DNA of 64,000 bases from an uncultured Candidatus Actinomarina sp. Its GTDB lineage: Bacteria > Actinomycetota > Acidimicrobiia > Actinomarinales > Actinomarinaceae. Below the pieces are notes generated by a model. It saw nothing but the letters and a program-made list of their open reading frames with translations, was not told the origin of the DNA and ran no database searches. Every line of letters begins with the position of its first letter. The first letter of the stretch is position 1. Location: positions 17,173-81,172 of the forward strand of contig CACJPC010000001.1 of the NCBI GenBank assembly GCA_902595195.1, written 5' to 3'. The position numbers and the translations under genes were made by a program. Below are positions 3,637 to 41,959 of this stretch, piece by piece.

Positions 3637-3757
3637 TTTCCTCTCTCCGCTTTAATAAGTCGAAGGATTCATACCTATTCTATTAAATTTTTATTATTAA
3701 ACAAGATACTTATTGATATGATTTATTATTTCTAAACATTGCCAATAACATCAAGAT

Positions 3758-23689: not shown

Positions 23690-24370
23690 TTATTCTTCCT
23701 CGTAAAATTTATGATTTTTAAAATCTCCACCACCCCAAAACTTAAGCCAGTTACCATAGGATATTGGAAATTCATCAGGGTTTATTTTGAACCAGCTAAA
23801 TGGTTGATCGCACATATAATAGATTTGACTGGCATCAAAAAACAATGCATCGACAAAACGGATTTTTTTCTTATCAATTTCTTTTGTAATTAATGGATGG
23901 TCTTTTCTTATGTAAATCCAAGATTCTTTAGATAGCTCTAGATATATACAATTTAATTGAACGCCACAATGTGGTCTATACCCTCCTTCATCCGGAATTT
24001 TTACTCCAGTTATTGGGTTGATCTTTATGCTGGTTAAACTTCCAGCCATATTATTTGGAACGGGAAATGAAAGATTTTTCATGTTTCTTTCAGTCTCTGA
24101 ATTGTAATGTGAATAATATATGTTCCAATCGCTTGAGTGATTGAATGTTGACACAACGACTTTTCCATCAAATAGTTTAAATTCATATAAATCACCTCTG
24201 AACCATATAGATCTTTTACTCGAATATTCTATTGGTTCAGGAAATTGATTTTTCCAAGGCTCTAAGACTGCTCCAAAATCTTCTTGGTATTTACATTCAA
24301 GTTCATATTCATCGAAGAAGTTTTTGTTATACATTGGATCTTCGTAACTTGGTGTATAAATTATATTCAT
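23690..24370 (-). CDS. Hypothetical protein (226 aa)
   Basis: Long ORF, 2-nt spacing to the next gene. No family recognised. Confidence 0.5.
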   Translation of the reverse strand: MNIIYTPSYEDPMYNKNFFDEYELECKYQEDFGAVLEPWKNQFPEPIEYSSKRSIWFRGDLYEFKLFDGKVVVSTFNHSSDWNIYYSHYNSETERNMKNLSFPVPNNMAGSLTSIKINPITGVKIPDEGGYRPHCGVQLNCIYLELSKESWIYIRKDHPLITKEIDKKKIRFVDALFFDASQIYYMCDQPFSWFKINPDEFPISYGNWLKFWGGGDFKNHKFYEEE

Positions 24371-25808: not shown

Positions 25809-27284
25809 TTACCTCTGTAGTATTTGATCTACAGTTATATCCCCTTTCTGGAAACGTATTAGATCTTCCCAACCTGATTGTTTAGCACCACACATGGCAC
25901 CTTTATCGTTTCTATATTCCTTGTATTGAACAGTGTCTATATCTAAAGTTGTAGCCATATGTGAAGATGAGAAAAAATAAGATATCTTTGGATCATATAA
26001 AATTCTCAATTGCATCAAATCAAGAGATGTAAAATACCCCATATAGTCTGCATGGTCTGCATAAGACATAACTGAATCTGTACAAAGATTGTGACCTAAA
26101 CCCAAAGCATGTCCAATTTCATGCACAAGAACGTGTTTTCTAAAATCACTTTTATATCTAGAATCTACCCATATCCACCCAAATTGACTTTTTGAGTAGG
26201 TATATTTTGCTGGGTAATAAGATCCTGCTATTTTATCTTTGCAATCATTAACTAAATCTGAAAATAAATTGTCACAATTTGAAAAGTGTATCGGTAGATT
26301 GACATAAGATGGATTGTCAGAATAAGAAATGTCTAAATTAGGTGCAACAATATTTAGTGTTCGTAATATTGTGTTAACAGTTTCTAAGTCTTCTTCTAGT
26401 ACGTTTCCAAATAACCCAAGAACAACTTTGCCCTCTAGACGATCTCTATGATGCAATGGTCTCTCTATATAGTCTTCATCTTTTGAGAGGGTGAAATCTA
26501 ATAGGGCTAATCCTGCTCCGTGAGGTTCTGGAAGTAAGTTGTGCATCTTACTGTGATTTTGGGATTGGAAAAACTCATTTAAATACTCTTCTTCTCCAAT
26601 GTTTCTTACATCGTAATTAAGTTCAAAAGCTGGATTTATGATATTTTCTTTATAAAAAACCTTTAAATCTTTTATGTTCTCATAGTTTAAATTTGTAAGC
26701 TCAAAAAATGTTTGTTCATGACATTTTTCTTCCTCATACGAAGATACCGCTAGTTGTACCTTCCATGTATTTACATTACGAGTATATTTGGTATCTAGTC
26801 CATTTAATAAAAGCAGACTTACTTTATGTGATGAATCATTAAGATTAAGTCTTACTTGGTTAATTGAGTGCATATGAAAAGCATTTGAAAACGATTCATA
26901 CATATAAGTGTTAGAGGGGATCGCTTTTATATATGCGGTTTTTACTCCTTCATTTTTTAGATTGTTCGGAAATGACACAACTATGTTTTTTCTTTCAGGC
27001 CCAATTTCTGCTTCAACTGAATTCCAGAATTCATCATTGAAACAAATATCTTTTCGTGCGGAATGCCCCGGATTCTCTTCGACATTACTTGAATGTTCTT
27101 CTGAAGAATAATGATTAGAGTCTATTGTAATTTCTTGTTCCGAGTTTTCACTGATAGCGCTTATAAATGTGTTTTCTGTAGTTCCTACAGTTAGGTACTG
27201 ATAAGTTGTAGTTAGCTGACTAACGGCGAATATTGACCAGTAAAATATCCAGGCCATTGCGAAACCTAACAGTTTATCTGACAC
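25809..27284 (-). CDS. Membrane-anchored zinc metalloprotease, metzincin (matrixin/M10-like)
   Basis: VLVHEIGHALGLGHNLCTDSVMSY contains HExxHxxGxxH plus a Met-turn. N-terminal hydrophobic anchor. 1-nt overlap with the upstream gene. Confidence 0.75.
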   Translation of the reverse strand: MSDKLLGFAMAWIFYWSIFAVSQLTTTYQYLTVGTTENTFISAISENSEQEITIDSNHYSSEEHSSNVEENPGHSARKDICFNDEFWNSVEAEIGPERKNIVVSFPNNLKNEGVKTAYIKAIPSNTYMYESFSNAFHMHSINQVRLNLNDSSHKVSLLLLNGLDTKYTRNVNTWKVQLAVSSYEEEKCHEQTFFELTNLNYENIKDLKVFYKENIINPAFELNYDVRNIGEEEYLNEFFQSQNHSKMHNLLPEPHGAGLALLDFTLSKDEDYIERPLHHRDRLEGKVVLGLFGNVLEEDLETVNTILRTLNIVAPNLDISYSDNPSYVNLPIHFSNCDNLFSDLVNDCKDKIAGSYYPAKYTYSKSQFGWIWVDSRYKSDFRKHVLVHEIGHALGLGHNLCTDSVMSYADHADYMGYFTSLDLMQLRILYDPKISYFFSSSHMATTLDIDTVQYKEYRNDKGAMCGAKQSGWEDLIRFQKGDITVDQILQR

Positions 27285-27900: not shown

Positions 27901-27996
27901 TTATACTTTTTCCTTTTCTTTCTCTGGTTGTGTAGCAGGCTCGTCGTTTGGAATCGGTACTGCTTCTATTACTCGTAATGGTTTTCCTATCTCCAT
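27901..27996 (-). CDS. Mini-ORF (31 aa) filling the only gap between two operon genes
   Basis: My translation: MEIGKPLRVIEAVPIPNDEPATQPEKEKEKV*. Its ATG overlaps the end of the upstream gene, and its stop lies 2 nt before the SGNH ATG. Support is positional only. Confidence 0.3.
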   Translation of the reverse strand: MEIGKPLRVIEAVPIPNDEPATQPEKEKEKV

Positions 27997-29408
27997 GTTT
28001 TTCCTTTCTTTATCTGATCTTCTGAAAAATTAAAATTGTCTTCATAGGTATTTTTCTTGGTCTTGCTTAAATACTTTTCAAAATATGGATAAATATCTTT
28101 AAACCAGTTTGAGGGATGTTCTTCTGGTGTAAATGAAATATTTCGTGCATACTCTACGCTATATTTTCTCTCTAAATATTCTTGATACCTAAAACCGAAT
28201 ATGTGAGTGAGATTTGGATAATCTAACAGGTCCCTTTTTTCATTGCTTTGGTCAGAAAGCATTACATTAAAGTGAGCAAACGATAAGAGGTACTCAAAAT
28301 AAAGTGGTAGAAATTCAGCTAAGCTTTCTCCTCTGAAATAACTAAAGAAGTTCTCAAAGTTAGCTCTTCTTTGTCCAAGGCGTCGTGATCTTAAACTTCT
28401 CTGGTGTTTTCTCGAATCAAGAAACACAAGATTTCCATTGTATTTCAATGCTTTTTCAAGGGTTATCTGAAGTGAGGGTAGTTTGTAATTTAAGAGCCTA
28501 TTTGTTTCAGAGATGACTTCAGATATTAACCTGATTTGAGGATAGATTACGGGGTGATCTTTAAATGGAAGATACTCAGACCCTTTTGTTTGATCACCAG
28601 TAAGTCTCTCATAGTTTTTTAAATGAGAATCTTGAAATTTAAATCTGAGTTCAAAATCATGTCCATATACTTTCAGTATGTTTGTTAAGTAGTTATCAAT
28701 ATATACTGCCCATTCATATGCAGCATTAAAGATTGCAGCTTCATCTTTATTGATAATTTTTCCTATGTATCGACAAATGCCTAATAGCGTTTCAAACTGT
28801 AATAACAAATAGAACTTTTCTGGCTCAACAAATTGAGATCTATATCCTTTTTCACACTCAATAACGACTCCTCTCAAAGCAACTTCACCAACAAGTGCAA
28901 AATTTTTCATATCCAATGTTTTAACAACTGGACTATTAAAAAAGAGTTCAGCAATAAGTTTTTGCTCGTATTCATGTTGCTTATTTAATCTTGCAAATAA
29001 AGTCTCATAATGTTTCACTAAATCATTCGATCCATCGTGGCCAAAACTACTAGTAGTCACCTCAGCAAATTTTTTAATTGAGTAGTAGCCACAACTACAG
29101 TATGGATTTGGAGCATTGTGGTCATAATTTCTACAGATAGCCTTACCGGACCATGGCTTCATAAAATCTTGTTCAGTTCCAAATCCTGGTGGGAGTACAT
29201 CATTAAAATCACTCCACGTTCTGTTTCTTCTCCATCCATCACTGCTGTGAAATCCGTTTTGAATAGTAAAACGCCATATTCTATAGGCTTTTAGAGATTC
29301 TGGAACAATTAAAGGTTCGATACGTTCTCTATTACAACGAGAGCACACAATCCCATGATGGTTGCGTAAATTATGTTCTAAACACTGACATTTTTTAACA
29401 TTATCCAT
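27987..29408 (-). CDS. Hypothetical protein (473 aa) with N-terminal Cys/His clusters
   Basis: Start moved to MDNVKKCQC (TAATG overlap with the upstream stop). Contains CQCLEHNLRNHHGIVCSRCN and AYRIWRF...CRNYDHNAPNPYCSCGYY. I have seen this pattern in uncharacterised actinobacterial and phage proteins (recall only). Confidence 0.5.
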   Translation of the reverse strand: MDNVKKCQCLEHNLRNHHGIVCSRCNRERIEPLIVPESLKAYRIWRFTIQNGFHSSDGWRRNRTWSDFNDVLPPGFGTEQDFMKPWSGKAICRNYDHNAPNPYCSCGYYSIKKFAEVTTSSFGHDGSNDLVKHYETLFARLNKQHEYEQKLIAELFFNSPVVKTLDMKNFALVGEVALRGVVIECEKGYRSQFVEPEKFYLLLQFETLLGICRYIGKIINKDEAAIFNAAYEWAVYIDNYLTNILKVYGHDFELRFKFQDSHLKNYERLTGDQTKGSEYLPFKDHPVIYPQIRLISEVISETNRLLNYKLPSLQITLEKALKYNGNLVFLDSRKHQRSLRSRRLGQRRANFENFFSYFRGESLAEFLPLYFEYLLSFAHFNVMLSDQSNEKRDLLDYPNLTHIFGFRYQEYLERKYSVEYARNISFTPEEHPSNWFKDIYPYFEKYLSKTKKNTYEDNFNFSEDQIKKGKTWR

Positions 29409-29641
29409 TAATACTTTCTCCCTACATGACCTATATGGAATAATCCACAAAATCTGCAGTGATACTCACTAATTAATGTATTGGTTCGCTTTCTTGCACG
29501 ATATGCTTTTGTTTTAGCAATCTCTTTTGTGTGATACTTCATCTTTCTCTTACAACTCCAACACTGATAACAAAGGCAGGTTGATCCATTTACCATAGAC
29601 CAACACAACGCTGGTCTATTGGAAGTACGCGTTTTCATCAC
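29408..29641 (-). CDS. Small basic zinc-ribbon protein (77 aa), first gene of the operon
   Basis: Contains CYQCWSCKRK...YHCRFCGLFHIGH. Confidence 0.45.
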   Translation of the reverse strand: MMKTRTSNRPALCWSMVNGSTCLCYQCWSCKRKMKYHTKEIAKTKAYRARKRTNTLISEYHCRFCGLFHIGHVGRKY

Positions 29642-29760
29642 TGCAGCCCTTCTTTTTAGTGATTTTGACTAATATTGTATATGTTTTTGGTAATTATGAC
29701 AAATAAAAATATCTTTTTTTTGTATTTTCCACTAATAATAAGATTCTTTATAATTGTGTT

Positions 29761-30588
29761 ATGGGTGTGAGTGAGAGATTTCCAGTTTCTCTAAATGCAG
29801 TGAATATTGTCTGTTTTAAGATTGACTGGAAAGAGAGAATGTTAAATGTACTTCTTATCAAAAGAAGTATTTCTCCATATAAGAACAAATGGTCACTTCC
29901 TGGTGGATTTGTCCAAGGAGATGAGACATTAGAAGAGGCTGCAAGAAGAATATTTGTTAATGAGACAGGTATTTCTCCTGCTTATCTAAACCAGTTTAGA
30001 ACATATAGTGGTACCAAAAGAGATAGACGTATTATAAATCAGCGTACTGAGCAGAAAGCAAGAGTAGTCTCTACTGCATTTACTGCTATTTATACAAGCG
30101 ATGAAGAGTTGAAGTTAGATGATGAGAGTGAAGATATTAGATGGTTTAAGATTCCAAGGCGTTATTTCAGTAGATATATACCAGAAGATATGGCGTTTGA
30201 TCATCATGATATGTTGCTAGAGGCATCCAATAGACTCCGGATGTCCTTGGAATATAGTGGTTTAGCGACTCGTTTCTTGCCAGAACACTTTACATTGGGC
30301 CAAATCCAGGATATTTATGAGATTATTTGGGAGGTAGAGTTAGATCCTGCAAACTTTAGAGAGAAACTCACCAATGTTGAGGGATGGATAAAAGAGTCTA
30401 AAGCTGGTCCTAAAGATGCCGAGCCAAGAAGAGGAAAACCTCCAACATGGTACAAAGAACATGATATTCCACAGTTCGATAGGATGATTACCAATCCAAA
30501 TGGAGCTGTTATAAGAGAGAAAGAGTCAGAGTATCAAAAAAGCTTAGATAATTTAACAGGGGAAATTCCAATTATTAAAGATGTATAA
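29761..30588 (+). CDS. NrtR-like regulator: degenerate Nudix domain + C-terminal winged-helix domain
   Basis: The Nudix box GGFVQGDETLEEAARRIFVNETGI (29902-29973) has RE changed to RR and EE changed to NE, so it is probably not catalytic. The C-terminal FTLGQIQDIYEIIWEVELDPANFREKL matches the NrtR wHTH signature (FTL..LQ..YE......D..NFR.K). Confidence 0.75.
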   Translation: MGVSERFPVSLNAVNIVCFKIDWKERMLNVLLIKRSISPYKNKWSLPGGFVQGDETLEEAARRIFVNETGISPAYLNQFRTYSGTKRDRRIINQRTEQKARVVSTAFTAIYTSDEELKLDDESEDIRWFKIPRRYFSRYIPEDMAFDHHDMLLEASNRLRMSLEYSGLATRFLPEHFTLGQIQDIYEIIWEVELDPANFREKLTNVEGWIKESKAGPKDAEPRRGKPPTWYKEHDIPQFDRMITNPNGAVIREKESEYQKSLDNLTGEIPIIKDV

Positions 30589-31336
30589 AGCAATTCTTTG
30601 TAGATGTAAGTCTTGTTCAAAAGAAAAAAATTACTCGGTTAATACAAGCGACATCAATAAAAGTGTATTTTGCTCTTACTGTAATAATAAAATTGGCAGT
30701 ATTGCTGAAATAATTAAATTGGATGAAGTTGCACAAACGAATAGAGAAGCTGAAGAACGTGAGCGAGAGAAACTTCAAGCTATAGAAAATGAAAAAAGGC
30801 AAGAGCGTTTAAAAGCACAAAAATTAAAAGAAAAAAAAGATTTCTTAAATTCTATTCCTAATGATTTTAAGCTGTTTCACTTTACAGACATTAGAAATTT
30901 AGATTCTATTAAACAGCACGGTTTATTAAGTTGGGAAAACTTAGAGAAAGAGCCTTTTAACTATTCAAGAGGAAAAGAGTACTTTCCAGCATCAGATCCA
31001 CCAGGATCTCATGGATATAGAGATGGATTGTCAAGAACTCTAGATCGAAATAAAAATCTAACTAATTATGTACGGCTATGCAAAAATTCCAATCATGAAA
31101 TGATTGAAGCAGCAAAAGCAAGGGGAGGTAATTTATGTTTATTAAAAATTAAAATTGAATCTTTATTTGAATTGGATTGTTTATTTGCTGATGATAATGC
31201 AACTACATTATCAAGACCTGTTGAAATAAATAAAGACTATAAAACCTTTGTTAATTCGAATAAAAACCAAGCTGAGGCTCTTGTTGAAAATTATATTCCC
31301 TTAGAATATATTGAAAAGAACTGGATTAAAATTTAA
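30581..31336 (+). CDS. Zinc ribbon + charged helix + DUF4433/DarT-like ADP-ribosyltransferase domain
   Basis: N-terminal CRCKSC...CSYCNNK, then EAEEREREKLQAIENEKRQERLKAQKLKEKK. The ART part starts FHFTDIRNLDSIKQHGLLS (from 30875) and ends QAEALVENYIPLEYI (Glu codon 31274-31276), as in DarT. 8-nt overlap with the NrtR-like gene. Confidence 0.6.
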   Translation: MYKAILCRCKSCSKEKNYSVNTSDINKSVFCSYCNNKIGSIAEIIKLDEVAQTNREAEEREREKLQAIENEKRQERLKAQKLKEKKDFLNSIPNDFKLFHFTDIRNLDSIKQHGLLSWENLEKEPFNYSRGKEYFPASDPPGSHGYRDGLSRTLDRNKNLTNYVRLCKNSNHEMIEAAKARGGNLCLLKIKIESLFELDCLFADDNATTLSRPVEINKDYKTFVNSNKNQAEALVENYIPLEYIEKNWIKI

Positions 31337-31344
31337 TAAAGATT

Positions 31345-32058
31345 ATGGCACAAAGACCAGTATTTAGCGTAGACGAAACCAACAAAGGTTTAATAACTGA
31401 AAAACTTATTGAATTTGAGTACTTCACTGGATTCTCTAGATCTCAAAAGGAAAAATCTATAAGTAGTCTCCATAAAGCAGCAAGTCACAAAGGGATAAAT
31501 TCAATTTTAGAAGTATCAACAAAATCATCATCCCCAGTCGGTGTACTTTTAAGTGCATTTAATCTCTCTTTTTTATCAAGTGAAAACAAACAAATATTTT
31601 TAGAATCGGTATTTCAAGGTAGTAAAATTTATGAAAACAATGATGGCCCACATACTGACTTATATAATTTATCTCCAAGTGATGTCAAAAAAGATGAAAG
31701 AATCGATAGAAACAAAAAAATTATTGGCTTTCAATTCAATAATATATTTTGGAATACGGAACCTAAAACAGCCTTCTATGATTGGCTATACTTAAACGCA
31801 TTAAAGTTCAATATTGAAAATTCAGGTAATCATGCTTATAAAGAAGTTTTAAATTATAGTTCTTTTACCGACATTGAATTTAATCATAAAAAATCTATCA
31901 ATTGTCAAGCAAGATCTTGTGCGCTATATGTTTCCCTTTATCAAAAAAAATTATTAGATAAAGCGTTAGCTAATAAAGAAAGCTTTCTAGAAATACTATC
32001 AAAAGACCCTTTTTACATCACTCAAAATAAATATAAACAAAAAGGTTTATTTGATTAA
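31345..32058 (+). CDS. Hypothetical protein (237 aa), third gene of the NrtR/DarT-like module
   Basis: Starts 9 nt after the DarT-like gene. I can see no macrodomain or NADAR motif. FEYFTGFSRSQKEKSISSLH and FTDIEFNHKKSINCQARSCALY look like conserved blocks of a family I cannot name. Confidence 0.5.
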   Translation: MAQRPVFSVDETNKGLITEKLIEFEYFTGFSRSQKEKSISSLHKAASHKGINSILEVSTKSSSPVGVLLSAFNLSFLSSENKQIFLESVFQGSKIYENNDGPHTDLYNLSPSDVKKDERIDRNKKIIGFQFNNIFWNTEPKTAFYDWLYLNALKFNIENSGNHAYKEVLNYSSFTDIEFNHKKSINCQARSCALYVSLYQKKLLDKALANKESFLEILSKDPFYITQNKYKQKGLFD

Positions 32059-33074
32059 AAAATAATTTTTTTTAAATTGTAGAGATCCCCTATTTCTTCT
32101 AAATCAAATGTAGAAACTAGAAGCTCGCCAATCTTTCCTCTACCATCTTTCTTGCTATTAATAGATTTGGAAACTAAGACTTCGTAAGCATACAGCTCTT
32201 TGTTTTGTAAAAATATCTCTCTTGCTAGTTCATTATTATTATTTGAAAGAATTACGTTATTTCCATCTTCGACTAATTTTAAAAATATTTTTCCAAGTTC
32301 TACATGATCTTTATATTTAAACCCTTGTGAGCTATAGTCGGTAAAATTTGATGTGTCCGAATTGGGTATATAAGGAGGATCTAGATAGATAAAGCTGTTT
32401 TTTTTCTTAATATTCTTAATAGTTTCTTTGTATGAACCACATGTTATTTTCGCATTTGATAAATAAAGGCTTGCATTTGCAAGATTATCTTTATCAATAA
32501 TATTAACTTTTTTATAGCTTCCAATCGGAACGTTAAATTGGTTATTGCTATTCACCCTAAACATTCCGTTAAAACATAACTTATTAATTGCTTGCATCAA
32601 AACGGCAGACTTGATTTTTTGTTCTTTAGTTTTTGGATTTATTTGAATATACTCTATTTTTTCTTTTTCAGATTCCTCTGAGTATGAAGCTATTTTTTCT
32701 TTTACCCATATCGAATTAAACTCCTTGACCAAGGCTTTGTACTCTGTAACAGGTCTCTTTTTTTTTGATAGTAATTTATTAAACTTAACCTCTATTTCCT
32801 CACACTGTTCGGTAAAACTTTCAAGATTCTTACTATCAGAAATAATCTCATAGTAAGAAATAAGCTGGGGTATAGCATCATTCAAATAAGCCGAATCAAT
32901 TAACTCTAAATCTTTTAAATAAAAGAAAATTGAACCTCCGCCAAAAAATGGTTCGTAGTAATCAAAAGTTTGATTGTTTTCATTTTGGAGTAAAGAGAAA
33001 GCATCTGATATTAGATTTTTTAGTTTTGTCTTGCCTCCAACCCACTTAAGTGTTGGTTTTGTAATATTACTCAT
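32055..33074 (-). CDS. dam: Dam-family (D12 class) N6-adenine DNA methyltransferase
   Basis: N-terminal KWVGGK, FFGGGS (SAM motif I) and DPPY (plus-strand 32370-32381). Start moved to MSNITKPTLKWVGGK; the track start 33131 adds an implausible hydrophobic leader. Confidence 0.85.
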   Translation of the reverse strand: MSNITKPTLKWVGGKTKLKNLISDAFSLLQNENNQTFDYYEPFFGGGSIFFYLKDLELIDSAYLNDAIPQLISYYEIISDSKNLESFTEQCEEIEVKFNKLLSKKKRPVTEYKALVKEFNSIWVKEKIASYSEESEKEKIEYIQINPKTKEQKIKSAVLMQAINKLCFNGMFRVNSNNQFNVPIGSYKKVNIIDKDNLANASLYLSNAKITCGSYKETIKNIKKKNSFIYLDPPYIPNSDTSNFTDYSSQGFKYKDHVELGKIFLKLVEDGNNVILSNNNNELAREIFLQNKELYAYEVLVSKSINSKKDGRGKIGELLVSTFDLEEIGDLYNLKKIIF

Positions 33075-33129
33075 TGTATTAACACATATTACTAGACAGA
33101 TAAGACTGAAATATTTAAAATGGGAAAAC

Positions 33130-33555
33130 ATGCTCAGTGACTATAAATCTGAAATGTTTGCTATTTTTGAAAATAATAGCTACAAAGTTACAACTATAAA
33201 AGATGTGTTTGATACAGGCTTAATGATTAATCACATTACCAGAAGAACCCCAAAGCAAAATATCTATATTGCAATTAAAGAAAGTACACCAGAATATTGT
33301 ATAAGGTACATGGGGCAAGAAAGTACCTCCGGTACAGCTTGGATGAAAATTGATCTATACGCTAAAGAGCTCAGTCACTGGGTGCACAATATGGATTCTG
33401 TAGACAAAGCTCTTTTGTATTTAGGTGGGGAGTTTTGGCAAGATATAGATACAAAAAACTACTGGAATAAACTTGTTGAAAATTTGTCACTTCCTAGTGC
33501 TAATTTATGTATTGTTGATAGTGATGGTTTAGTAAACTTATTGGAGAGTAAATGA
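33130..33555 (+). CDS. Hypothetical protein (141 aa), first gene of the GHKL/SNF2 operon
   Basis: Start taken at ATG 33130 (MLSDYKSEMF), because the track start 32974 lies inside dam on the opposite strand. ATGA overlap with the next gene. Confidence 0.45.
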   Translation: MLSDYKSEMFAIFENNSYKVTTIKDVFDTGLMINHITRRTPKQNIYIAIKESTPEYCIRYMGQESTSGTAWMKIDLYAKELSHWVHNMDSVDKALLYLGGEFWQDIDTKNYWNKLVENLSLPSANLCIVDSDGLVNLLESK

Positions 33556-35207
33556 CTCAATTTCAACCTCAATTAGGTAATGCTTTTTACAAAGCTCTTG
33601 GTGCTGAAGACATGGAGCCATTGCTAGCAATAAACGAAATCATTGCTAACTCTATCGACTCTTGGATAGAAGAATATTGTGGTAAAAAGGCAAAACGTCC
33701 AAAACTATCGATAGATATCAATATGTCAGCAAAACAAATAACTATTCAAGATAATGCTGGAGGAATGGAACCAGAGGAATTAAAAAATGCCATGGGTTTT
33801 GCAAAAGTTCAAAAAGAGCTTAGTGACTGTGCTGATGATTTAATGGGAATGTATGGATTTGGGCTTAAAGCCGCAACTGCAAATCTTGGTGGGCATTTTG
33901 AGGTAGTTTCAAAAAGGAAAAATAAGGATCTCTGCCATGTAGTAATGCCTATCGACAAGATGGCACAGGAAGTTAAGGCTGGTAAATCTGGAATGCTCAG
34001 TGATATTGAAGAAAATGGATACAACAAGAAAACAAAAATAAAAGATGTAGAAAAGGTATTTAATCCCGCTAAAACAAAGTCTGGAACATTTATTTATATT
34101 TCGCAGATAAAAAGAACTAATTTTAACCCTGAATCAATAATGAACGAATTATGTTACGCATGGCATTTTTTCACCCAAGAAAATCATCTAGGACCTGCTG
34201 TAGAGATTAAATTCAACGGAGTAAAAATAAGTGAACCAGAGTGGGGTCGTGATCAAGGCGGACAAGTGCCTTACAGCTCCATAGATTTTGAGTTTCCGTT
34301 TTCTTGGAGAGAAAATACAAAAACAATTGACACTAAAGTTCAATTTTCAGTGTGGCTTAATTATAAAGGTGGACAATATCAAGCAGGTGGTTTGTCATTA
34401 TATAGAAAACTCCAAATGGTTTCCTACAAGGACCAAGAACTTGGCAAATGGTGGAGTAACGAATCAGCTAGTATCGAAGGATATTTAAGCACAAACTATT
34501 TAACTCCTAACCAAAGAAAAGATGATTTAGATAGGACGACTAGGTTCTACAAAGAATTCAACAAAGCACTTGAACCAGTAATGAAAGGAGCGGCTAAATT
34601 AGTCGATTCACAGCGCGGAGGCTTAGATGGTAAAGGATTTTCAAGAACAGCAATGGCTCAAGATGAGTTCGAAATGGGAAAATTCCTTGCATTAGGGTGG
34701 TTGAAATATTTTAATGAACACCCATTAGTCGAGGTAAGTTCGAAATTTCCGAAAGAACTTGAAAAATTTTTAAAAGATAAACAAAATACTCCAAGTGGTC
34801 CTGAAGATCCTGGTCCTGAAGATCCTGGTCCTGAAGATCCTCGTCCTGAAGAACCGGCTGTTGAAATTTTTGAACCTATTGATGAAAACTCATTTAATTT
34901 TGATGGTGAAACATATCAACTCCTCATACTCAAAGATAAAACTGATGGAAGCAGTTATGACTGGAAAAAAACTGGAGAACAAATTGAAATATTTATTGAT
35001 GATGAGGCTGACGGCATAAATAAAGAATTGGGAGGTATGCTGAAAAAAATGACAAATGACCCTGGAGTGGGTAAATGGGAAAAATTGTCTTTAAATTTAG
35101 TAAAAGAACACGTAATTCATCAATTTTTACTTAAGGAAAATATACAAAATGCGCGGGCATTTGCATATGCAAAATCTTGGATTGAGAACATTTATAAAAA
35201 TGAATAA
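33552..35207 (+). CDS. GHKL-superfamily ATPase, MORC/paraMORC-like (HATPase_c_3 type)
   Basis: N-box INEIIANSIDSW, G1 box IQDNAGGME and G2 box GMYGFGLKAA. A GPEDP-repeat linker precedes a C-terminal domain. Confidence 0.75.
   Translation: MTQFQPQLGNAFYKALGAEDMEPLLAINEIIANSIDSWIEEYCGKKAKRPKLSIDINMSAKQITIQDNAGGMEPEELKNAMGFAKVQKELSDCADDLMGMYGFGLKAATANLGGHFEVVSKRKNKDLCHVVMPIDKMAQEVKAGKSGMLSDIEENGYNKKTKIKDVEKVFNPAKTKSGTFIYISQIKRTNFNPESIMNELCYAWHFFTQENHLGPAVEIKFNGVKISEPEWGRDQGGQVPYSSIDFEFPFSWRENTKTIDTKVQFSVWLNYKGGQYQAGGLSLYRKLQMVSYKDQELGKWWSNESASIEGYLSTNYLTPNQRKDDLDRTTRFYKEFNKALEPVMKGAAKLVDSQRGGLDGKGFSRTAMAQDEFEMGKFLALGWLKYFNEHPLVEVSSKFPKELEKFLKDKQNTPSGPEDPGPEDPGPEDPRPEEPAVEIFEPIDENSFNFDGETYQLLILKDKTDGSSYDWKKTGEQIEIFIDDEADGINKELGGMLKKMTNDPGVGKWEKLSLNLVKEHVIHQFLLKENIQNARAFAYAKSWIENIYKNE
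34797..34856. repeat. Tandem repeat, 4 x 15 bp (GGTCCTGAAGATCCT x3 plus a degenerate copy), coding (GPEDP)3-RPEEP
   Basis: Read directly: three perfect units at 34797-34841 and a fourth unit CGTCCTGAAGAACCG. Confidence 0.95.
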
Positions 35208-35877
35208 CAAATTTAAACAAGCTTGGGAAGAACTATTAATATTAGAAAAATCTGAAAATCAAGAGTTAGCTGATTATGAAGATCAACTACTTGATATATT
35301 AAATATCCTTTTTAATCATTGGCCTGAGGGTGTTGACGATTTGTCTTTAGCTGACGAACTAAATACTACTGTCGCTAAAGTTACCGCTTTGAAGTTTTTA
35401 AGTTCTATAGAAGAAGATGAGTTGATTCCAGTTCTTAAAAAGTACAGAAACACTTCGCTTTTATATGAAATATTAAAAATACCTGAGCAAACAAGAGATG
35501 TGTTTTTAAATAGAGCAGGAAGAGTTCGACATAACATTACAATGCTAGTCAAAATGGCTAATGATTTGTTTAATGGTTTAAGTGAAATTGAAAAAAATGA
35601 GAGTTCTAATCCTTGGATGAAAAAAATTAGTGTTATAGATAAAAGTATCTGGGGTGATATTGCTAATGAAGCAAAAGACTGGGGTATTAAAGAGCAAGAT
35701 ATTAAGAAAATTGAGAAATTTAAATCGGGTAGAAAAAAAACAATACAGGACTGGGAGTGGTTAAAAGATTTTGTTGAAATCCAGATAAATAAGAAAAATA
35801 TAGCACCAAAAAATATACATGGAGAACCTATGAATCATCACAAAGTTTTAATTGAAACATGGAAAAGAATAATCTAA
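35200..35877 (+). CDS. Hypothetical protein (225 aa) between the GHKL ATPase and PLD-SNF2
   Basis: Start taken at ATG 35200 (MNNKFKQAWEEL), an 8-nt overlap with the GHKL stop. It ends 1 nt before the next gene. Confidence 0.5.
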   Translation: MNNKFKQAWEELLILEKSENQELADYEDQLLDILNILFNHWPEGVDDLSLADELNTTVAKVTALKFLSSIEEDELIPVLKKYRNTSLLYEILKIPEQTRDVFLNRAGRVRHNITMLVKMANDLFNGLSEIEKNESSNPWMKKISVIDKSIWGDIANEAKDWGIKEQDIKKIEKFKSGRKKTIQDWEWLKDFVEIQINKKNIAPKNIHGEPMNHHKVLIETWKRII

Positions 35878-35878
35878 A

Positions 35879-38800
35879 TTGTCCTACAAAGATTTACGCT
35901 TACGAAAAACAGTTGAAGGTAGTGGAAAATTACTTAACAATGTAATAAAACCCTCGCTCAAAGAAAACACAAAAACCTTTAGGGCTCTTACAGCTTATTA
36001 CAGTATTGGATCTCTTGAAGCTATTGGAAAAACTCTTGACTATTTTTTAAGTAACGACGGAATAATTCAAATTGTTATTGGAGATCAAGTAGATGACGAA
36101 AGGACACTTAAAGGGGCTAGTGAAGAACTTCAAAAAGAAGAAATTGTAATTTTTCAAAAAAAATTACAGGAAGATGTTGAACTTGTAAGAAATGAAAATT
36201 CAAGGTTTACAATTGCGACAATTGCTTATTTGATTTTAGATGAAAAATTACAGCTTAAAGTTGCTAACTATAGAAATGGTGAGTTGTGGCATCCAAAAAT
36301 GTACCTTCTTGAAGATGGAGATGGGAACAAAATAGCAGCATCTGGATCTGGAAACATGTCAGAAAGCGGTTTTGAAAAAAACTATGAAATACATGATATT
36401 TTTACTAATTGGGACTTTGGTACCGAGTACTTTTCATCAGAAGATCCTTCAGAACCAACAAAGGAAGAAATTTTTTGGAGAATTTGGAATAATAATGATG
36501 AAAACACAGAGGTAAAGGAACTTGATAAAGAATACGCTCAAAAGCTCTTAGAACGAATTGGTAATCCATCAAAAGAAGATGTTATTAAATACGTAGATCA
36601 AAAAGTAAAAGATAACCAGAATGAAAATTTATTAAACTTTAAAAAAGATTTACAAACTTCGCCAATTTTCCACGAGTTTAATTTAGGTAAATCAGCCCTA
36701 TATCCACATCAAATAAATGCGGTACAAAAAGCGCTAAAAATGTGGCCAATCAGGATCCTCTTTTCTGATGAAGTTGGATTAGGTAAAACTTTAGAATTAG
36801 GAACACTAATAGCTTATCTAATTAAAAACAATTTAGTAGATAATGTTTTAGTGTTGGCACCACCAACATTGACTGAACAGTGGCAGGATGAAATGAAACA
36901 ACACTTTGATCTAGACTTTGCAAGATATGACAGAACAAAAAAAAGTTGGGTCTATAAAGATGAAGAATTTGAAGGTATTAAAGAAAATTCTCCCTTAAGA
37001 TACAACGATAATTTTCCCTCTTTAGCGATTATGTCTAAATCTATGGCAGTTCGATCAAATGAGCAACATATCTTTTTAGAAAACGATTCTTATCCCGACT
37101 TTTTGGTAATTGATGAAGCTCATCATGCCAGAATGCACAGAGGTTATGATGGTTCAGCAAAGAAAACTAATTTTAGAAGAGTTGTGGAACAAATCTCTAA
37201 TGAAATCAAACACATAGCATTTGCAACTGCGACGCCTATGAGAAAAAATATTGATGAATACTTCTTTTTATTAGATCTGTTGGGAGTGGAAGAGTTAATT
37301 AGTGAAAAAGATTATGAAAAATCTCTTTCTATAATAAATGATTTCTATACAGATAGGAACAACAAATTTAACTTAGATGACCTATCCCTAATTAAAGATT
37401 TATTGATTAAAGTAATTGATAAATCAGAGGAACGTTTTTTTCACAATTCTCCAGAAATTTATAGCCTTGTTAATGAACTTAAAAATGGTGAAGTTGATAA
37501 TGCTTGGCTTTTTGAAAATAGTAAAAAATTAATTGAGTTTCATACGATTTATCATCCGACAAGAATTTTAACTTCAAGGAATGTTCAGGAAAATCTTAAT
37601 AAGTTTTCTGAGATTTATAAAATACCTAAAAGAACTCTAAGGCCATCTCCAATTCTTCCAATTGATATTTCAAATGAGCTTAATGACTTCTTTTCAAGCA
37701 TTATGGAGTATGTAGATAGATTTTATCAAATAACTGAACTTGCAATTACCCCTGATAAGCAATTACCTCTTGGTCTTAGAAGACATTCTTTACAAGAGAG
37801 ATTCGCTTCAAGTTTTTGGTCGGCAAAAAAGAGTATCACAAACAGAAGAGAGCATCTTATTAATTCGCTTGAAGGCTTTAAAGAGAATAAAATTACAAAA
37901 GAATTTTTTGAGAATTCTGATGAAGATGATGACGAAGATACAATAATTGCCGGATTAACAAAGAGCGAATTAGTCAGTGTTGACTGGGAAAATGTAATTA
38001 AAAATTGTGAGTCAGAGATAAGAGCTTTAAATACCTATGTTGACTTGGCAGAAATAGTTATCAATAGTACTCCTGAAGGCATTGATCCTGACCCTAAAAT
38101 TAACGAGACTGTCAGGTTATTTTCTGAACACATAGATAAAAATCCTGGAAAACCGTTATTAATTTTCTCTAAATATACAGACACTTTAAATGAAGTTGAA
38201 CGAGCTGTTATTTCTTATTGTGAAACTAACGACATTTACATGGGATATGCAAGTTATAGAGGAGACTATCGAAGAATTAAATACGCAAATGACCGTGAAC
38301 ATAGAAAGGCTGAAAAGAGAGATATAACAAGAGCACTAAACAACGGTCGAATTCAAGTAATTTTTTGCAGCTCGGCGGCTAGCGAAGGTCTAAATTTACA
38401 AGCAGCTTCTTACATGATTAATGTAGATGTACCTTGGGTGCCTAGTGATCTTGAACAGAGGATTGGAAGAATTGCTAGGTTGGGTCAAAAAGAAGATGAG
38501 GTATTAATTGATAATATTTGGTACCCATTCAGTATTGAAAGCAATATGTATAAAAGACTTATTGATCGTCAAAGAGACATGTCATTTGCTATTGGGCAAT
38601 TTCCAGACTTGATTGCTGAGGCAATTAAAAATTTTGTAGATGACAAAGATGCAAAAAAAATTGAAAAAACGATTGATGAAATTAATAAAAAGAAAAATAC
38701 ATATGAAATGAAAGTGTTAAATGAGCTATGGATCCAGGATGGGAACGAGCCTCTTCATCCTTGGGGGAACGTGTTTAGGAAAGAAATCCTCGAAATTATG

Positions 38801-39244
38801 CAGAAATTAGATTTAAATACCGAAAGTATTGATTCGAACTCAGGCTCATTAGACATTCTACATTTTCATTTAACAGAGTTTGAAGAAATATTTAATAAAG
38901 AACCAAAAGAAGACGGTTCAAATGCAGAACTGTTAGGCATTTATTCTAATGAATATTTGGTAGGCTTTAAATTGTTGAAAGACGGTGAAGAAAATGGATT
39001 ATTAATAAATCCTATCAATTTCCCACAAGTATTAGAAAGTCTCTTTTTTGGAAATAGCTTATCTATAGAAACTTATGACAAACAACTAGACACTCTCAAT
39101 AAATTATTGAACTTTTATTTAGATATAAAATACCCGAGCTTGCTACCAGTTCATCATTTAATTTCATTTATTGAAAACGAAATAAGTCAAGAATCGTTTG
39201 ATAGAGAATTAAAAGAAAAGGTAATAGGCAGAGTTACTCTGTAA
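35879..39244 (+). CDS. Fusion protein: N-terminal PLD/HKD nuclease domain + SNF2-family (SF2) helicase/translocase (TTG start)
   Basis: HKD motif WHPKMYLLEDGDGNKIAASGSGNMSESG (36290-36370). SNF2 motif I DEVGLGKT, motif II LVIDEAHHAR, motifs V/VI CSSAASEGLNLQ and LEQRIGRIARLGQ. Confidence 0.82.
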   Translation: MSYKDLRLRKTVEGSGKLLNNVIKPSLKENTKTFRALTAYYSIGSLEAIGKTLDYFLSNDGIIQIVIGDQVDDERTLKGASEELQKEEIVIFQKKLQEDVELVRNENSRFTIATIAYLILDEKLQLKVANYRNGELWHPKMYLLEDGDGNKIAASGSGNMSESGFEKNYEIHDIFTNWDFGTEYFSSEDPSEPTKEEIFWRIWNNNDENTEVKELDKEYAQKLLERIGNPSKEDVIKYVDQKVKDNQNENLLNFKKDLQTSPIFHEFNLGKSALYPHQINAVQKALKMWPIRILFSDEVGLGKTLELGTLIAYLIKNNLVDNVLVLAPPTLTEQWQDEMKQHFDLDFARYDRTKKSWVYKDEEFEGIKENSPLRYNDNFPSLAIMSKSMAVRSNEQHIFLENDSYPDFLVIDEAHHARMHRGYDGSAKKTNFRRVVEQISNEIKHIAFATATPMRKNIDEYFFLLDLLGVEELISEKDYEKSLSIINDFYTDRNNKFNLDDLSLIKDLLIKVIDKSEERFFHNSPEIYSLVNELKNGEVDNAWLFENSKKLIEFHTIYHPTRILTSRNVQENLNKFSEIYKIPKRTLRPSPILPIDISNELNDFFSSIMEYVDRFYQITELAITPDKQLPLGLRRHSLQERFASSFWSAKKSITNRREHLINSLEGFKENKITKEFFENSDEDDDEDTIIAGLTKSELVSVDWENVIKNCESEIRALNTYVDLAEIVINSTPEGIDPDPKINETVRLFSEHIDKNPGKPLLIFSKYTDTLNEVERAVISYCETNDIYMGYASYRGDYRRIKYANDREHRKAEKRDITRALNNGRIQVIFCSSAASEGLNLQAASYMINVDVPWVPSDLEQRIGRIARLGQKEDEVLIDNIWYPFSIESNMYKRLIDRQRDMSFAIGQFPDLIAEAIKNFVDDKDAKKIEKTIDEINKKKNTYEMKVLNELWIQDGNEPLHPWGNVFRKEILEIMQKLDLNTESIDSNSGSLDILHFHLTEFEEIFNKEPKEDGSNAELLGIYSNEYLVGFKLLKDGEENGLLINPINFPQVLESLFFGNSLSIETYDKQLDTLNKLLNFYLDIKYPSLLPVHHLISFIENEISQESFDRELKEKVIGRVTL

Positions 39245-39500: not shown

Positions 39501-40076
39501 TCAGTATGAATCTATAATAAAATAGTCGCCACTAGGAATATTCCAGGCTTTAACTGCATCGAACCATCTAAAATGTCCTTCAGCTTCATTGGTATCTCCT
39601 GCAAAAACTATTCCCGATACATATTGAAATAACAATGATGTACATTTTCCATTGACATGAGACTTTGATGATTTCATATCAACTGCCCTTATTAATTTTT
39701 CAATATATTGAATAGTTCTTAAGGTAACTTGGCCTCCCGCATTTTTTCTATTCAATCTTATGTAGTCATTAATATTCGGCTTTGGTCTATTTAAACGTTG
39801 AGAAATTCTTACTGGAGCTAAAATCGCATCTGGATCCTTTAAGTCATCTAATTTTCCATCTATTTCCAAAGAAATTTGCATATCTTCCTTATTAAATCTC
39901 ATAATTATCCAAATATCTTTACCAAATTTAGACGTACCGAGATACCTTCGACCATTAAAAGTATCTTTCTTTAACGCATTTGTAAGAAATTGCTCTTTTT
40001 TTCTTTTTTTAAGTTCTAACTTCTTGTTATCTATTTTTTTATTCAAATAATCCCCTTTCAATGTAAATTTGCACAA
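39501..40076 (-). CDS. Hypothetical protein (start uncertain: TTG 40076 or ATG 39899)
   Basis: Long ORF with a Lys-rich N-terminus. The TTG start lies inside the T-tract of a terminator-like hairpin, so the shorter form is plausible. Confidence 0.4.
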   Translation of the reverse strand: MCKFTLKGDYLNKKIDNKKLELKKRKKEQFLTNALKKDTFNGRRYLGTSKFGKDIWIIMRFNKEDMQISLEIDGKLDDLKDPDAILAPVRISQRLNRPKPNINDYIRLNRKNAGGQVTLRTIQYIEKLIRAVDMKSSKSHVNGKCTSLLFQYVSGIVFAGDTNEAEGHFRWFDAVKAWNIPSGDYFIIDSY

Positions 40077-40212: not shown

Positions 40213-41958
40213 ATGGGTAAAGCGACATTTTTTGAGGGAGAATATCCAGAATCAAACACTTCTGAAAAAAAGGTTGCAGAAATTTTAAAAAAATTTTCAA
40301 ATGAATGGACAATTTTTCACTCTGTAAAAGTTCATGATCCCGAAACTGAAAAGCTAACAAATACAGAAATTGACTTTTTACTTATTCATCCTGCATATGG
40401 ATTTATACAGATAGAGGTAAAAGGGAAAGGATACCAAACAGATGAGGAGGGTAATTGGTTTATAAAAAAAGGACCAAATAAAGAAAAAGTAGCTTCTCCA
40501 ATCGATTCACTTGGTGAAAAACAATCTAAGATAATGAAAACTTTCCTGTATCACAATAAATCTATAAAGGGAGTAGATCTTTTTAATGTAAATGTACCCA
40601 TAATATCACTTATGTTTTGGACTGACTTAAAGCGTGAAGATCTACCAATTGCAGAAGTTTCAGAAGTAAATTCTTACTTTGTTGAAGATATATTTATTCC
40701 GGTTGAGAGTCTTGAAGAAAATTTGTTACAAAAAATGCGGAAACATATAAAAATAAATAAAAAAATAAAATTTGATAAAAACAAGTGGTTGTCTCCATTC
40801 TTAGGAAAACCCTTTGTTACAACAGTTATTACTATTTTTAAACCATATCAAAAGAGTTATAAATTAAAGTCAGCAACAGGTAGAACTAGTAATGAATTAG
40901 AACTTGCTACACAAGAACAGATTGAGCATTACAAGATACTAACTGACAGCAGTTACAAACGTCATCTTGTAAGTGGTCCTCCAGGAAGTGGAAAGACTGT
41001 GTTAGCTAAAGCTATAGCTAGGGAAAGAGCAGAAGATGGTAAAAAAGTACTTTTTATGTGTTTCAACAGGGCATTAGCTGATGAGATTGATTTTGAATTT
41101 AGGAAAGAAGAAAATATTGAAGTCTTGTCTATGTGGAAGTATTTTAAACTACTTGGGATATCGTGGGAAGATACTGTTGAGCATGAGGGTAAGAAAATTG
41201 TACTTCAAAAACTGCCTCCCCATATTTCATCAACGTATATAGCGAAATTGTTAGAAGAAAAAATAAATGATGCTGTAGATAATTTTAAATTTGACATTCT
41301 GCTTATTGATGAAGCGCAGGATTTTTCTGAAAAATATTGGGATTTTTTTAAATTACTTTTTGCTGAAAAGCCTGAATCAGCTTGGTATTTATTTTTTGAC
41401 ACAAACCAAGCTCTTACACACCCTGAATGGTCGCCTCCACTATTTGAAATACCTCATTCAAATTTACCCCTGACTTATATATTGAGATGCACTGAAAACA
41501 TATCTCATAAAGTACAGAATATATTTGAATCTAAGTTTGGCTTCAAGGGAATTACTGGAGAAGAACCTGAATTTTTAGTTGTAAATGAATCATCATGGGA
41601 CAACTCTTTGGAAGAATTAGTGAAGCTATTAAAAAATCTTATAGACATTGAACATTTTTCTCCAAAACAATTATCAGTGCTGGTGCCTCACTCACGAGAT
41701 ATAGATTTGGTAAAAGGTTATAAATATGATGAAGAAAGCTCTATTGAATCTAAAAAAATTAATGTATCTTCAGTGTATAAATACAAAGGATTAGAAAATG
41801 ATATTGTTATAGTCGTCATACCTAGCTGGGATTCGTTAAATGCCGATTATATACTTCAACCCCTTAGTCTTGCCTATGTTGGCTTTTCGAGAGCAAAGAC
41901 TAAATTATATGTCATAGGAGATAAAAAAATCCAAAAAGAAATAAATTGGAATAAATAA
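40213..41958 (+). CDS. NERD-domain nuclease fused to an SF1 (UvrD/AAA_11-12-like) helicase
   Basis: NERD: KKVAEILKKFSNEWTIFHSVKV...EIDFLLIHPAYGFIQIEVKG. Helicase: GPPGSGKT (Walker A), LIDEAQDF (Walker B), SSVYKYKGLENDIVIVV, GFSRAKTKLYV. Confidence 0.8.
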   Translation: MGKATFFEGEYPESNTSEKKVAEILKKFSNEWTIFHSVKVHDPETEKLTNTEIDFLLIHPAYGFIQIEVKGKGYQTDEEGNWFIKKGPNKEKVASPIDSLGEKQSKIMKTFLYHNKSIKGVDLFNVNVPIISLMFWTDLKREDLPIAEVSEVNSYFVEDIFIPVESLEENLLQKMRKHIKINKKIKFDKNKWLSPFLGKPFVTTVITIFKPYQKSYKLKSATGRTSNELELATQEQIEHYKILTDSSYKRHLVSGPPGSGKTVLAKAIARERAEDGKKVLFMCFNRALADEIDFEFRKEENIEVLSMWKYFKLLGISWEDTVEHEGKKIVLQKLPPHISSTYIAKLLEEKINDAVDNFKFDILLIDEAQDFSEKYWDFFKLLFAEKPESAWYLFFDTNQALTHPEWSPPLFEIPHSNLPLTYILRCTENISHKVQNIFESKFGFKGITGEEPEFLVVNESSWDNSLEELVKLLKNLIDIEHFSPKQLSVLVPHSRDIDLVKGYKYDEESSIESKKINVSSVYKYKGLENDIVIVVIPSWDSLNADYILQPLSLAYVGFSRAKTKLYVIGDKKIQKEINWNK

Positions 41959-41959
41959 C

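Follow-up and report, generated by a model that had tools for sequence, protein, structure and literature searches.

A DarT1-NADAR pair directly behind an NrtR-like regulator gene at the edge of a marine defence island

The locus described here raises the question of how a DNA-modifying toxin gene might be controlled when it directly follows, and overlaps, the gene for a regulator from a family with characterised ADP-ribose sensors, and of what kind of antitoxin accompanies it. The three co-directional genes concerned occupy positions 29761-32058 of a 64,000-nucleotide (nt) stretch of DNA from an uncultured Candidatus Actinomarina sp. of about 33% GC (contig CACJPC010000001.1), referred to throughout as the window. 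A preliminary description of the window proposed that gene 1 encodes an NrtR-type regulator, gene 2 a DarT-like ADP-ribosyltransferase (ART) and gene 3 an antitoxin of a new fold. Our analysis indicates that genes 2 and 3 are, judged by homology, the known DarT1-NADAR (DarTG1) pair, and we think it rather better than an even prospect that this ordinary module is co-transcribed with, and so controlled by, an NrtR-like repressor that probably senses ADP-ribose. The identities of the genes, the conservation of the operators and the positional association between regulator and module are observed. The three genes, with lengths in amino acids (aa), are:

29761-30588, plus strand: gene 1, NrtR/AraR-family regulator with Nudix and winged helix-turn-helix (wHTH) domains, 275 aa (from domains, homologues, family alignment, solved structures and junction analysis)
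30581-31336, plus strand: gene 2, DarT1-type DNA ADP-ribosyltransferase toxin, 251 aa (from Pfam DarT, an AlphaFold2 (AF2) model, Foldseek and HMMER alignment)
31345-32058, plus strand: gene 3, DarT1-associated NADAR antitoxin of the guanine-ADP-ribose glycohydrolase family, 237 aa (from PF22397, structure 8bat and motifs)

Genes 1 and 2 overlap by 8 nt (ATGTATAA), and genes 2 and 3 are separated by 8 nt (31337-31344), where a 9-nt gap had been reported. The co-directional arrangement and the 8-nt overlap were as previously described, and every peptide string quoted in the preliminary description was found in the translations. At its 3' end, gene 3 shares 4 nt with a Dam-type methylase gene of convergent orientation. 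No Shine-Dalgarno sequence was found at gene 1, and none was obvious at genes 2 and 3.

Gene 3 had been described as lacking a NADAR motif and was proposed to be a new reversal or antitoxin fold. It matches the Pfam family of DarT1-associated NADAR proteins, PF22397, over profile positions 1-211 of 212 (E 2.4e-78, 262.9 bits), and the Geobacter lovleyi NADAR structure 8bat with E 1.5e-53 and about 45% identity over 223 residues. The motifs ES.FQ.SK and FTDIEFN are the same in gene 3 and 8bat, their spacing is that of E88/K95 and D171/E173 in E. coli C7 NADAR, and the catalytic E/K/D columns of NADAR are invariant in 18 homologues. For the gene as a whole, 4868 homologues were found. The earlier question of whether gene 3 resembles a known ADP-ribosyl hydrolase is therefore answered by the NADAR match. 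A Pfam scan of the three-gene module found no macrodomain, the feature that would mark a DarTG2 system. Gene 3 is thus a canonical DarT1-associated NADAR, the outcome that the preliminary description had itself named as reducing the locus to a known type, and therefore genes 2 and 3 form an ordinary DarT1-NADAR pair. The idea of a three-component system, with a new fold in gene 3 instead of the macrodomain or NADAR, had drawn, before testing, on the absence of motifs recognisable by eye; set against the full-length profile match, the identity to the G. lovleyi protein and the number of homologues, it now carries next to no weight.

The account of gene 2 as a CxxC ribbon and charged helix ahead of a DarT-like domain with its catalytic glutamate was borne out by profile, model and active-site comparisons. 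The Pfam DarT profile (PF14487, DUF4433) matches residues 99-245 with E 1.9e-13 and 51 bits against a cutoff of 22.5. The AF2 model (predicted local distance difference test score, pLDDT, 84) contains a four-stranded zinc ribbon, a helix of about 50 residues and an ART domain, which correspond to aa 2-40 (30584-30700), a long charged helix at aa 41-91 (30701-30853) and aa 96-251 approximately (30866-31333); the cysteines at the N terminus follow the pattern CxC-x2-C...CxxC. The ART fold, for which a structure search had been suggested as a check, was found when the model was compared with the PDB using Foldseek: E. coli C7 DarT1 (8baq) ranked top with E 2e-5, followed by the DarT2 structures 7omu and 7omv and then by Tpt1/KptA. 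Identity in the structural alignment to 8baq is 20%. In HMMER alignments to 8baq, gene 2 residues H100/F101/T102, S109, N206 and Q230/E232 are equivalent to DarT1 H17/F18/T19, S26, N104 and Q150/E152, respectively; N104 is the guanine-coordinating asparagine, H17 and F18 contact NAD+ and E152 is catalytic (Schuller 2023, PMC11543638; Cihlova 2024, PMC11125620). Glu232 of gene 2 thereby takes the position of Glu152, the catalytic residue of E. coli C7 DarT1, and the sequences differ at this point (QAAILV in 8baq, QAEALV in gene 2) because the crystallised DarT1 carries E152A. The equivalents of DarT1 R52, D54 and M71 (R152, D155 and M174 in gene 2) were assigned by motif only. Gene 2 has only 7 close homologues. 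Its N-terminal extension of about 95 aa has no counterpart in the 208-aa E. coli DarT1, and among its relatives such extensions range from none to about 270 aa. From the alignments and the model, gene 2 is best described as a divergent DarT with a DarT1-type active site.

For gene 1, the combination of a Nudix domain and an NrtR wHTH named in the preliminary description was confirmed by Pfam matches to NUDIX (PF00293, 5.7e-17) and NrtR_WHD (PF21906, 2.2e-10). The Nudix domain spans aa 15-131 and the wHTH aa 171-232, and these are followed by an extra conserved C-terminal tail (aa 233-270). Residues 7-210 match the solved structures of BtAraR (5bs6, 2e-21) and SoNrtR, the Shewanella NrtR (3gz5, 1e-16), as well as 2fml; the AF2 model of gene 1, made from a 22-sequence alignment, had a pLDDT of 50, and the fold was taken from these sequence matches instead. 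The Nudix box is degenerate, as had been seen, and the degeneracy is family-wide; the substitutions read in register are RE to RI and EE to NE, in place of the RR/NE first given. Across 22 family members the glutamate after the arginine is always isoleucine or lysine and the first glutamate of the EE pair is variable, and the box of gene 1 keeps Glu55 and Glu68. The family looks like a sensor rather than a hydrolase because catalytic glutamates of the box are lost throughout it. Five of the eight positions at which SoNrtR contacts ADP-ribose are kept in gene 1 and three are not: R41, R95, R98, the conserved histidine and F15 of SoNrtR correspond to R35, R87, R90, H148 and F7. R90 and the aromatic residue at position 7 (F7 or Y7) are invariant or conserved in the gene-1 family, and their SoNrtR counterparts, R98 and F15, contact the ADP moiety and are both missing in the arabinose sensor AraR (Chang 2015, PMC4666351). 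On the strength of these alignments the effector of the gene-1 protein is most likely ADP-ribose or a close derivative. The region beyond the canonical NrtR wHTH, aa 233-275 (30457-30585), forms a strongly conserved tail of about 40 aa, HDIPQFDRMITNPNGAVIREKESEYQKNLDNLTGEIP, in which only the last residues vary.

The 119-bp region 5' of gene 1 contains three predicted operators and a promoter-like site:

29655-29673: operator 1, NrtR-box-like palindrome TTTAGT-GATTTTG-ACTAAT, at a fixed position across loci and with a GT-N7-AC core
29686-29704: operator 2, TTTGGT-AATTATG-ACAAAT (palindrome search, locus alignment)
29718-29736: operator 3, TTTTGT-ATTTTCC-ACTAAT (palindrome search, locus alignment)
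29726-29754, plus strand: promoter-like site for the gene 1-DarT-NADAR transcript, TTTCCA-17 nt-TATAAT (10 of 12 matches)

The operators share the consensus TTTDGT-N7-ACWAAT, and their centres are spaced by 31 bp (1 to 2) and 32 bp (2 to 3). The core is the same as the GT-N7-AC reported for most NrtR groups (Rodionov 2008, PMC2330246). Predicted operators occur at fixed positions, on both strands, in all 17 gene-1-family loci with enough upstream DNA, and they are present whatever cargo lies downstream of gene 1. Within the 64 kb, three exact matches to the consensus were found, all within 82 bp, against a chance expectation of 0.34 for a pattern that was itself derived from these sites; no further exact operator was found elsewhere in the 64 kb, and matches with one mismatch were at chance level. 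Because the count in the window is circular in this way, it is the conservation across loci that provides the real evidence for the operators.

The predicted operators also lie on the predicted promoters. Operator 1 overlaps the -10/start region of a divergent, minus-strand promoter (TTGTCA-17-TACAAT), operator 2 overlaps the -35 element of that promoter (TTGTCA, 29702-29697), and operator 3 overlaps the -35 element of the gene-1 promoter (TTTCCA, 29726-29731). The site at 29726-29754 presumably functions as a promoter: in the stretch 29749-29763, its -10 element (TATAAT or TATACT) is conserved in a 19-locus alignment and ends 6 nt before the ATG of gene 1, which suggests that the gene-1 mRNA may be leaderless. 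When the region was searched, with an internal DarT promoter also looked for, 19 promoter-like sites were found compared with 19.1 expected from shuffled sequence. The direct regulon is likely to consist of gene 1, whatever is co-transcribed behind it and the divergent operon, as far as the arrangement of sites can indicate.

The association between the regulator and ADP-ribose modules was seen beyond the window (loci on other contigs are given by L numbers). Every DarT/NADAR locus examined in the marine clade directly follows the C terminus of a gene-1-family protein (L001, L003-L012, L173, L174-176 and a JGI contig). The DarT-NADAR arrangement of the window, with a 251-aa DarT, is found in six further contigs and in L173; DarTs of four other lengths make up the five length variants of the clade (239 aa in L009-L012, 192 aa in L001, 171 aa in L174-176 and 426 aa in the JGI contig). 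DarTs that accompany gene-1 alleles of 91-95% identity share 39-64% identity with one another, and the NADARs share 61-76%. In a midpoint-rooted neighbour-joining tree, a rough test, the 60 marine NADARs group together to the exclusion of the 80 best from other taxa.

A metagenome scan gave 42 close-family gene-1 loci that serve as an unbiased, gene-1-based sample. Six of them (about 14%) have an ADP-ribose module downstream, always as the first gene or genes and always co-directional, and the modules found behind gene 1 are of three kinds: DarT1-NADAR, NADAR alone and DarG-DarT. In L109 (946-1656) and L126 (473-1183), a lone NADAR gene lies 9 nt after gene 1 with no DarT nearby. L113 and L122 carry a DarG-like macrodomain gene and then a DarT gene (PADLOC, DarG 1.6e-55 and DarT 1.7e-30; NCBIfam, 1e-52 and 6.4e-27), and the same macrodomain gene lies behind gene 1 at the contig ends of L107 and L097. 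The other downstream island genes, about 120, include no macrodomain, NADAR or DarT, and the contrast between first slot and other island genes (6/42 vs 0/120) gives a Fisher p of 2e-4 for loci that are not phylogenetically independent. Distinct ADP-ribose cassettes keep the first-slot position while the genes beyond them differ. Taken from these loci, the link between the regulator and ADP-ribose modules looks real. As observations on the modules themselves, the macrodomain gene of L113 (908-2303) and L122 (624-2004) encodes 241 aa, where DarG models have about 330 aa, and overlaps a 221-226-aa DarT by 8 nt; the order is antitoxin then toxin, and the pair starts 4 nt after the NrtR-like gene. 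In L109 and L126, where the antitoxin is an orphan, the methylase/MORC block of the window comes next after the lone NADAR, and this orphan-NADAR arrangement probably also covers many NADAR clusters of 54-55% identity.

The regulator gene also marks the edge of a hypervariable island. Close homologues of gene 1 number about 94, share 58-91% identity with it and come without exception from metagenomes of marine or estuarine origin; identity then falls to 43% or less with ordinary NrtRs. A homologue is also present in the metagenome-assembled genome GCA_038142085.1. A search for proteins exactly identical to gene 1 gave no match, probably owing to a different choice of start codon. Upstream of gene 1 the loci conserve a 77-aa zinc-ribbon protein, a protein of about 470 aa of unknown function, a GDSL/SGNH hydrolase and an M10-like zincin, and downstream the content differs from locus to locus (restriction-modification methylases, helicases, nucleases). 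The conserved coding sequence of gene 1 stops at ...TGEIP(I/V); the last 3-10 codons and the DNA that follows are unrelated between loci, and the last codons of gene 1 in the window, about five, are hypervariable. This places the island boundary within the final codons of gene 1. As expected at such a junction, contigs from metagenomes often break within the gene. In L002 and L123 the slot is empty and gene 1 is followed directly by a recurrent unknown gene, c4. No gene-1-family gene was found in viral contigs, and on this ground a phage origin for the regulator was rejected.

The reading that we favour assigns each gene a part in one unit; for its co-transcription, repression, ligand and biological trigger we infer the following. 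Genes 2 and 3 would be a functional DarT1-NADAR toxin-antitoxin (TA) and anti-phage module of a divergent marine subfamily. DarT would ADP-ribosylate guanine in single-stranded DNA using NAD+, and NADAR would reverse this by removing the guanine adduct, freeing ADP-ribose. Dimers of the gene-1 protein would bind the three phased boxes and repress their own and the divergent promoters. The DarT-NADAR module is the first cargo of the island, with no intergenic space and no recognisable promoter of its own, and because neither spacer nor terminator follows gene 1 it is probably transcribed with gene 1 and would inherit its ligand-gated autoregulation. An ADP-ribose-like ligand would release the repressor from the operators, so that transcription of the module would respond to ADP-ribose from NADAR or DarG turnover or from NAD+ cleavage during infection, and the three genes would behave as a tripartite TA system with a separate repressor. 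A stronger form of this reading, in which the NrtR-like protein is a genuine sensor of ADP-ribose or a derivative and gates any DarTG module behind it (DarT1-NADAR, DarG-DarT2 or lone NADAR), is one that we think less likely than not. If it were true, the result would be a ligand-gated tripartite TA or defence unit in which ADP-ribose from antitoxin turnover, phage ADP-ribosyltransferases or NAD+-cleaving defences de-represses toxin and antitoxin together. NADAR-only versions would then provide inducible repair of foreign DNA ADP-ribosylation, and the conserved regulator and promoter would form a place for docking and expression where the hypervariable island begins.

A number of observations weigh against these proposals, and several of them fit the alternative that the adjacency is coincidental, with gene 1 regulating itself and the divergent operon and DarT-NADAR being one interchangeable cargo at an island boundary. 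The other 36 of the 42 close gene-1 loci, about 86%, have no ADP-ribose module yet carry the same operators, and their cargo is highly diverse. In 26 of 43 loci the gene immediately downstream is convergent with gene 1, and overlaps of 4-11 nt with the gene-1 stop are also seen for co-directional cargo of unrelated kinds (a BglII-like nuclease, a Dam methylase and a DEAD helicase). For this reason the 8-nt overlap is not specific to DarT, and it was dropped as proof of dedicated coupling. The empty slots and the boundary within the last gene-1 codons fit coincidence as well, and the non-independent loci of the association count reduce to about eight distinct cassette types. Outside the marine lineage, a GTDB scan with the NADAR alignment, using one genome per species, found 546 loci with a best match of 51% identity; when the best 80 of these were searched within 5 kb with a gene-1-family hidden Markov model that included ordinary NrtRs of 35-43% identity, none of the 80 DarT1-NADAR loci had an NrtR-like open reading frame (ORF). 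Gene 1 as a general feature of DarT1-NADAR systems is thereby ruled out. Gene 1 clearly has a role independent of DarTG, and it may act primarily on itself and on the divergent operon. The NrtR-DarT coupling proposed in the preliminary description consequently survives as a positional link in the marine lineage and not as the work of a dedicated DarT regulator. Coincidence nevertheless has to account for two unrelated hydrolase folds (NADAR and the DarG macrodomain) and two DarT subfamilies that are confined to the first co-directional slot and absent from the rest of the islands, for at least eight sequence-distinct cassettes that hold this position as the genes beyond them change, and for the fact that a family with characterised ADP-ribose sensors would be an unlikely chance neighbour of such modules. 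We consider it unlikely, with appreciable weight left to it.

Gene 1 could also control the operon and sense another ligand, such as a sugar (as in AraR), NAD+ or a different nucleotide signal, in which case the link to ADP-ribosylation would be indirect. The closest solved relative of gene 1 is AraR, an L-arabinose sensor, whose BtAraR match stands ahead of that to SoNrtR; in place of N43 and K76, which contact phosphate in SoNrtR, gene 1 has Ile37 and Glu68, Tyr10 has no counterpart, and effectors are known to vary in the NrtR family. We call the protein NrtR-like rather than NrtR because no NAD-metabolism genes were found among the gene-1 neighbours scanned and because it scores 104.5 bits against a cutoff of 400 for the NCBIfam NrtR equivalog NF050029. 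Against a different ligand are the conserved R90 and aromatic position 7, the ADP-moiety contacts that AraR lacks, and the finding that the only recurrent co-directional partners of gene 1 are ADP-ribose-releasing enzymes. Another ligand seems less likely than not. It is much less probable that gene 1 is not a transcription factor at all and acts as an ADP-ribose or NAD pyrophosphatase that clears the ADP-ribose released by NADAR. Its Nudix fold and the retained Glu55 and Glu68 would suit an enzyme, and the Nudix domains of such transcription factors have been suggested to help process ADP-ribose (Iyer 2022, PMC9503650); the family-wide changes in the box, the C-terminal NrtR wHTH and the three conserved palindromic predicted operators at the gene's own promoter argue against a purely enzymatic role and leave it improbable. 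Control of the module by a probably ADP-ribose-sensing repressor therefore remains the reading that we prefer.

The regulator shares its operator region with a conserved divergent operon, which starts with:

29408-29641, minus strand: zinc-ribbon ORF, 77 aa, cluster c2, first gene of the conserved divergent operon (from neighbourhood clustering)

Cluster c2 is kept in every locus with upstream sequence, and the ORF of the window has no Pfam match. The genes that follow it in the operon encode a 487-aa unknown protein (27987-29450, minus strand), which has N-terminal cysteine-rich motifs and no Pfam match, a GDSL/SGNH hydrolase and an M10-like zincin, a 491-aa protein (25809-27284, minus strand) with a C-terminal HExxHxxGxxH zincin motif and weak matches to Peptidase_M10/DUF2927. 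Within the cluster upstream of gene 1 there is also a SAM-I/IV riboswitch (RF01725; 24427-24526, minus strand; 55 bits, gathering score 41.1), which lies upstream of an ORF of 226 aa (23690-24370, minus strand) without a Pfam match. The 64-kb window contains no tRNA genes. In L002, the upstream cluster of a 75%-identical gene-1 homologue with an empty downstream slot includes an ADP-ribosylglycohydrolase (ARG) gene (3733-4560, minus strand; PF03747, 2.1e-22), which links the regulator to a third ADP-ribose hydrolase fold.

The slot of the window contains DarT, NADAR, a Dam methylase, a MORC-like ATPase and an SNF2/PLD helicase. Behind NADAR, the block at 32055-39244 comprises the Dam-type methylase gene (minus strand), an ORF of 141-193 aa, a MORC-like HATPase_c_3 protein, a 242-aa ORF and a 1121-aa SNF2/PLD helicase. 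The same block is found again after the NADAR genes of L003, L109 and a JGI contig, and it resembles a restriction or defence system of the MORC/SNF2 type. Beyond the variable slot, the next gene with some conservation belongs to cluster c4, an ORF of 133-191 aa without a Pfam match (39501-40076 in the window, minus strand) that recurs in L001, L002, L094, L101, L121 and L123 and may mark the right edge of the first slot. More defence-island genes follow at 40213-47941: a NERD-UvrD-like helicase (40213-41958) and, on the minus strand, an RNase_H_2/Cas4-like nuclease, a 1065-aa SMC-like AAA_27/AAA_23 ATPase and a metallophosphoesterase, which together form an SbcCD-like trio. A similar SbcCD-like trio lies after DarT-NADAR in L009.

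How DarTG systems are silenced and switched on is poorly understood, and neither DarG nor NADAR has a DNA-binding domain; the DarTG papers describe two-gene operons only (PMC11543638, PMC11125620). A regulator family that responds to ADP-ribose, found in operon position with both types of DarTG, provides a concrete and testable feedback model: transcription would respond to what the antitoxin reaction, or NAD+ breakdown in infection, produces. The model would also carry the predicted role of Nudix-HTH sensors beyond systems with hydrolases only, to complete TA pairs. The loci further provide a record of a defence-island hotspot bounded within the codons just before the stop of a regulator gene. 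Should the association be one of position alone, what remains is a defence island with a divergent DarT1-NADAR pair.

Compared with DarTG1 (Schuller 2023, PMC11543638; Cihlova 2024, PMC11125620), the window has the same order, a DarT-family ART directly followed by a PF22397 NADAR with conserved catalytic motifs, and gene 2 has E. coli C7 DarT1 as its best structural match and keeps both the catalytic glutamate and the guanine-coordinating asparagine. It differs in that the toxin is very divergent, with an N-terminal zinc ribbon and long helix, and in that the pair is preceded and overlapped by an NrtR-like gene. Neither Schuller 2023 (PMC11543638) nor Cihlova 2024 (PMC11125620) mentions a Nudix/NrtR gene in DarT1-NADAR operons, and our literature searches found no description of an NrtR-DarT(G) operon or of a DarTG with a repressor. 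Unlike in DarTG2, the antitoxin of the window is not a macrodomain, and a DarG-like macrodomain with DarT fills the same slot in L113 and L122. TA operons with a separate repressor gene are known from omega-epsilon-zeta and paaR-paaA-parE. The window resembles these in having a regulator and then a TA pair in one tightly packed operon, and autoregulation would fall to the third protein because the antitoxin has no DNA-binding domain. Unlike them, gene 1 comes from a ligand-sensing family and is conserved independently of the TA pair, and its repressor function is predicted.

With the NrtR family (Rodionov 2008, PMC2330246) and its AraR branch (Chang 2015, PMC4666351), gene 1 shares a Nudix domain with a degenerate box, the PF21906 wHTH, 19-23-bp palindromes with a GT-N7-AC core at its own promoter and several SoNrtR contacts. 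It departs from NrtR in having no adjoining NAD genes, a score below the equivalog cutoff and an extra C-terminal tail of about 40 aa; it also forms the constant side of a defence island, and DarTG modules are its preferred partners in an operon. Nudix-HTH or WYL repressors have been predicted to act as ADP-ribose sensors of ARG-centred conflict systems (Iyer, Burroughs, Anantharaman, Aravind 2022, PMC9503650). Those systems accrete variable Macro, NADAR, restriction endonuclease-type nuclease and helicase genes, often with a phosphatase and chaperones, and have no coupled ART; ART-plus-hydrolase pairs are listed as a separate transferase-coupled class (PMC9503650). The loci described here share with them a Nudix-HTH repressor, variable Macro, NADAR, nuclease and helicase neighbours, rapid swapping of content between strains and, in the relative L002, the ADP-ribosylglycohydrolase of the upstream cluster. 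Unlike them, the window has no ARG (no PF03747 among the ORFs scanned), and the regulator heads complete DarTG1 and DarTG2 pairs. Among these systems the DarT1-NADAR pair and the NrtR family were already known, and what the locus adds is a testable regulatory link for DarTG.

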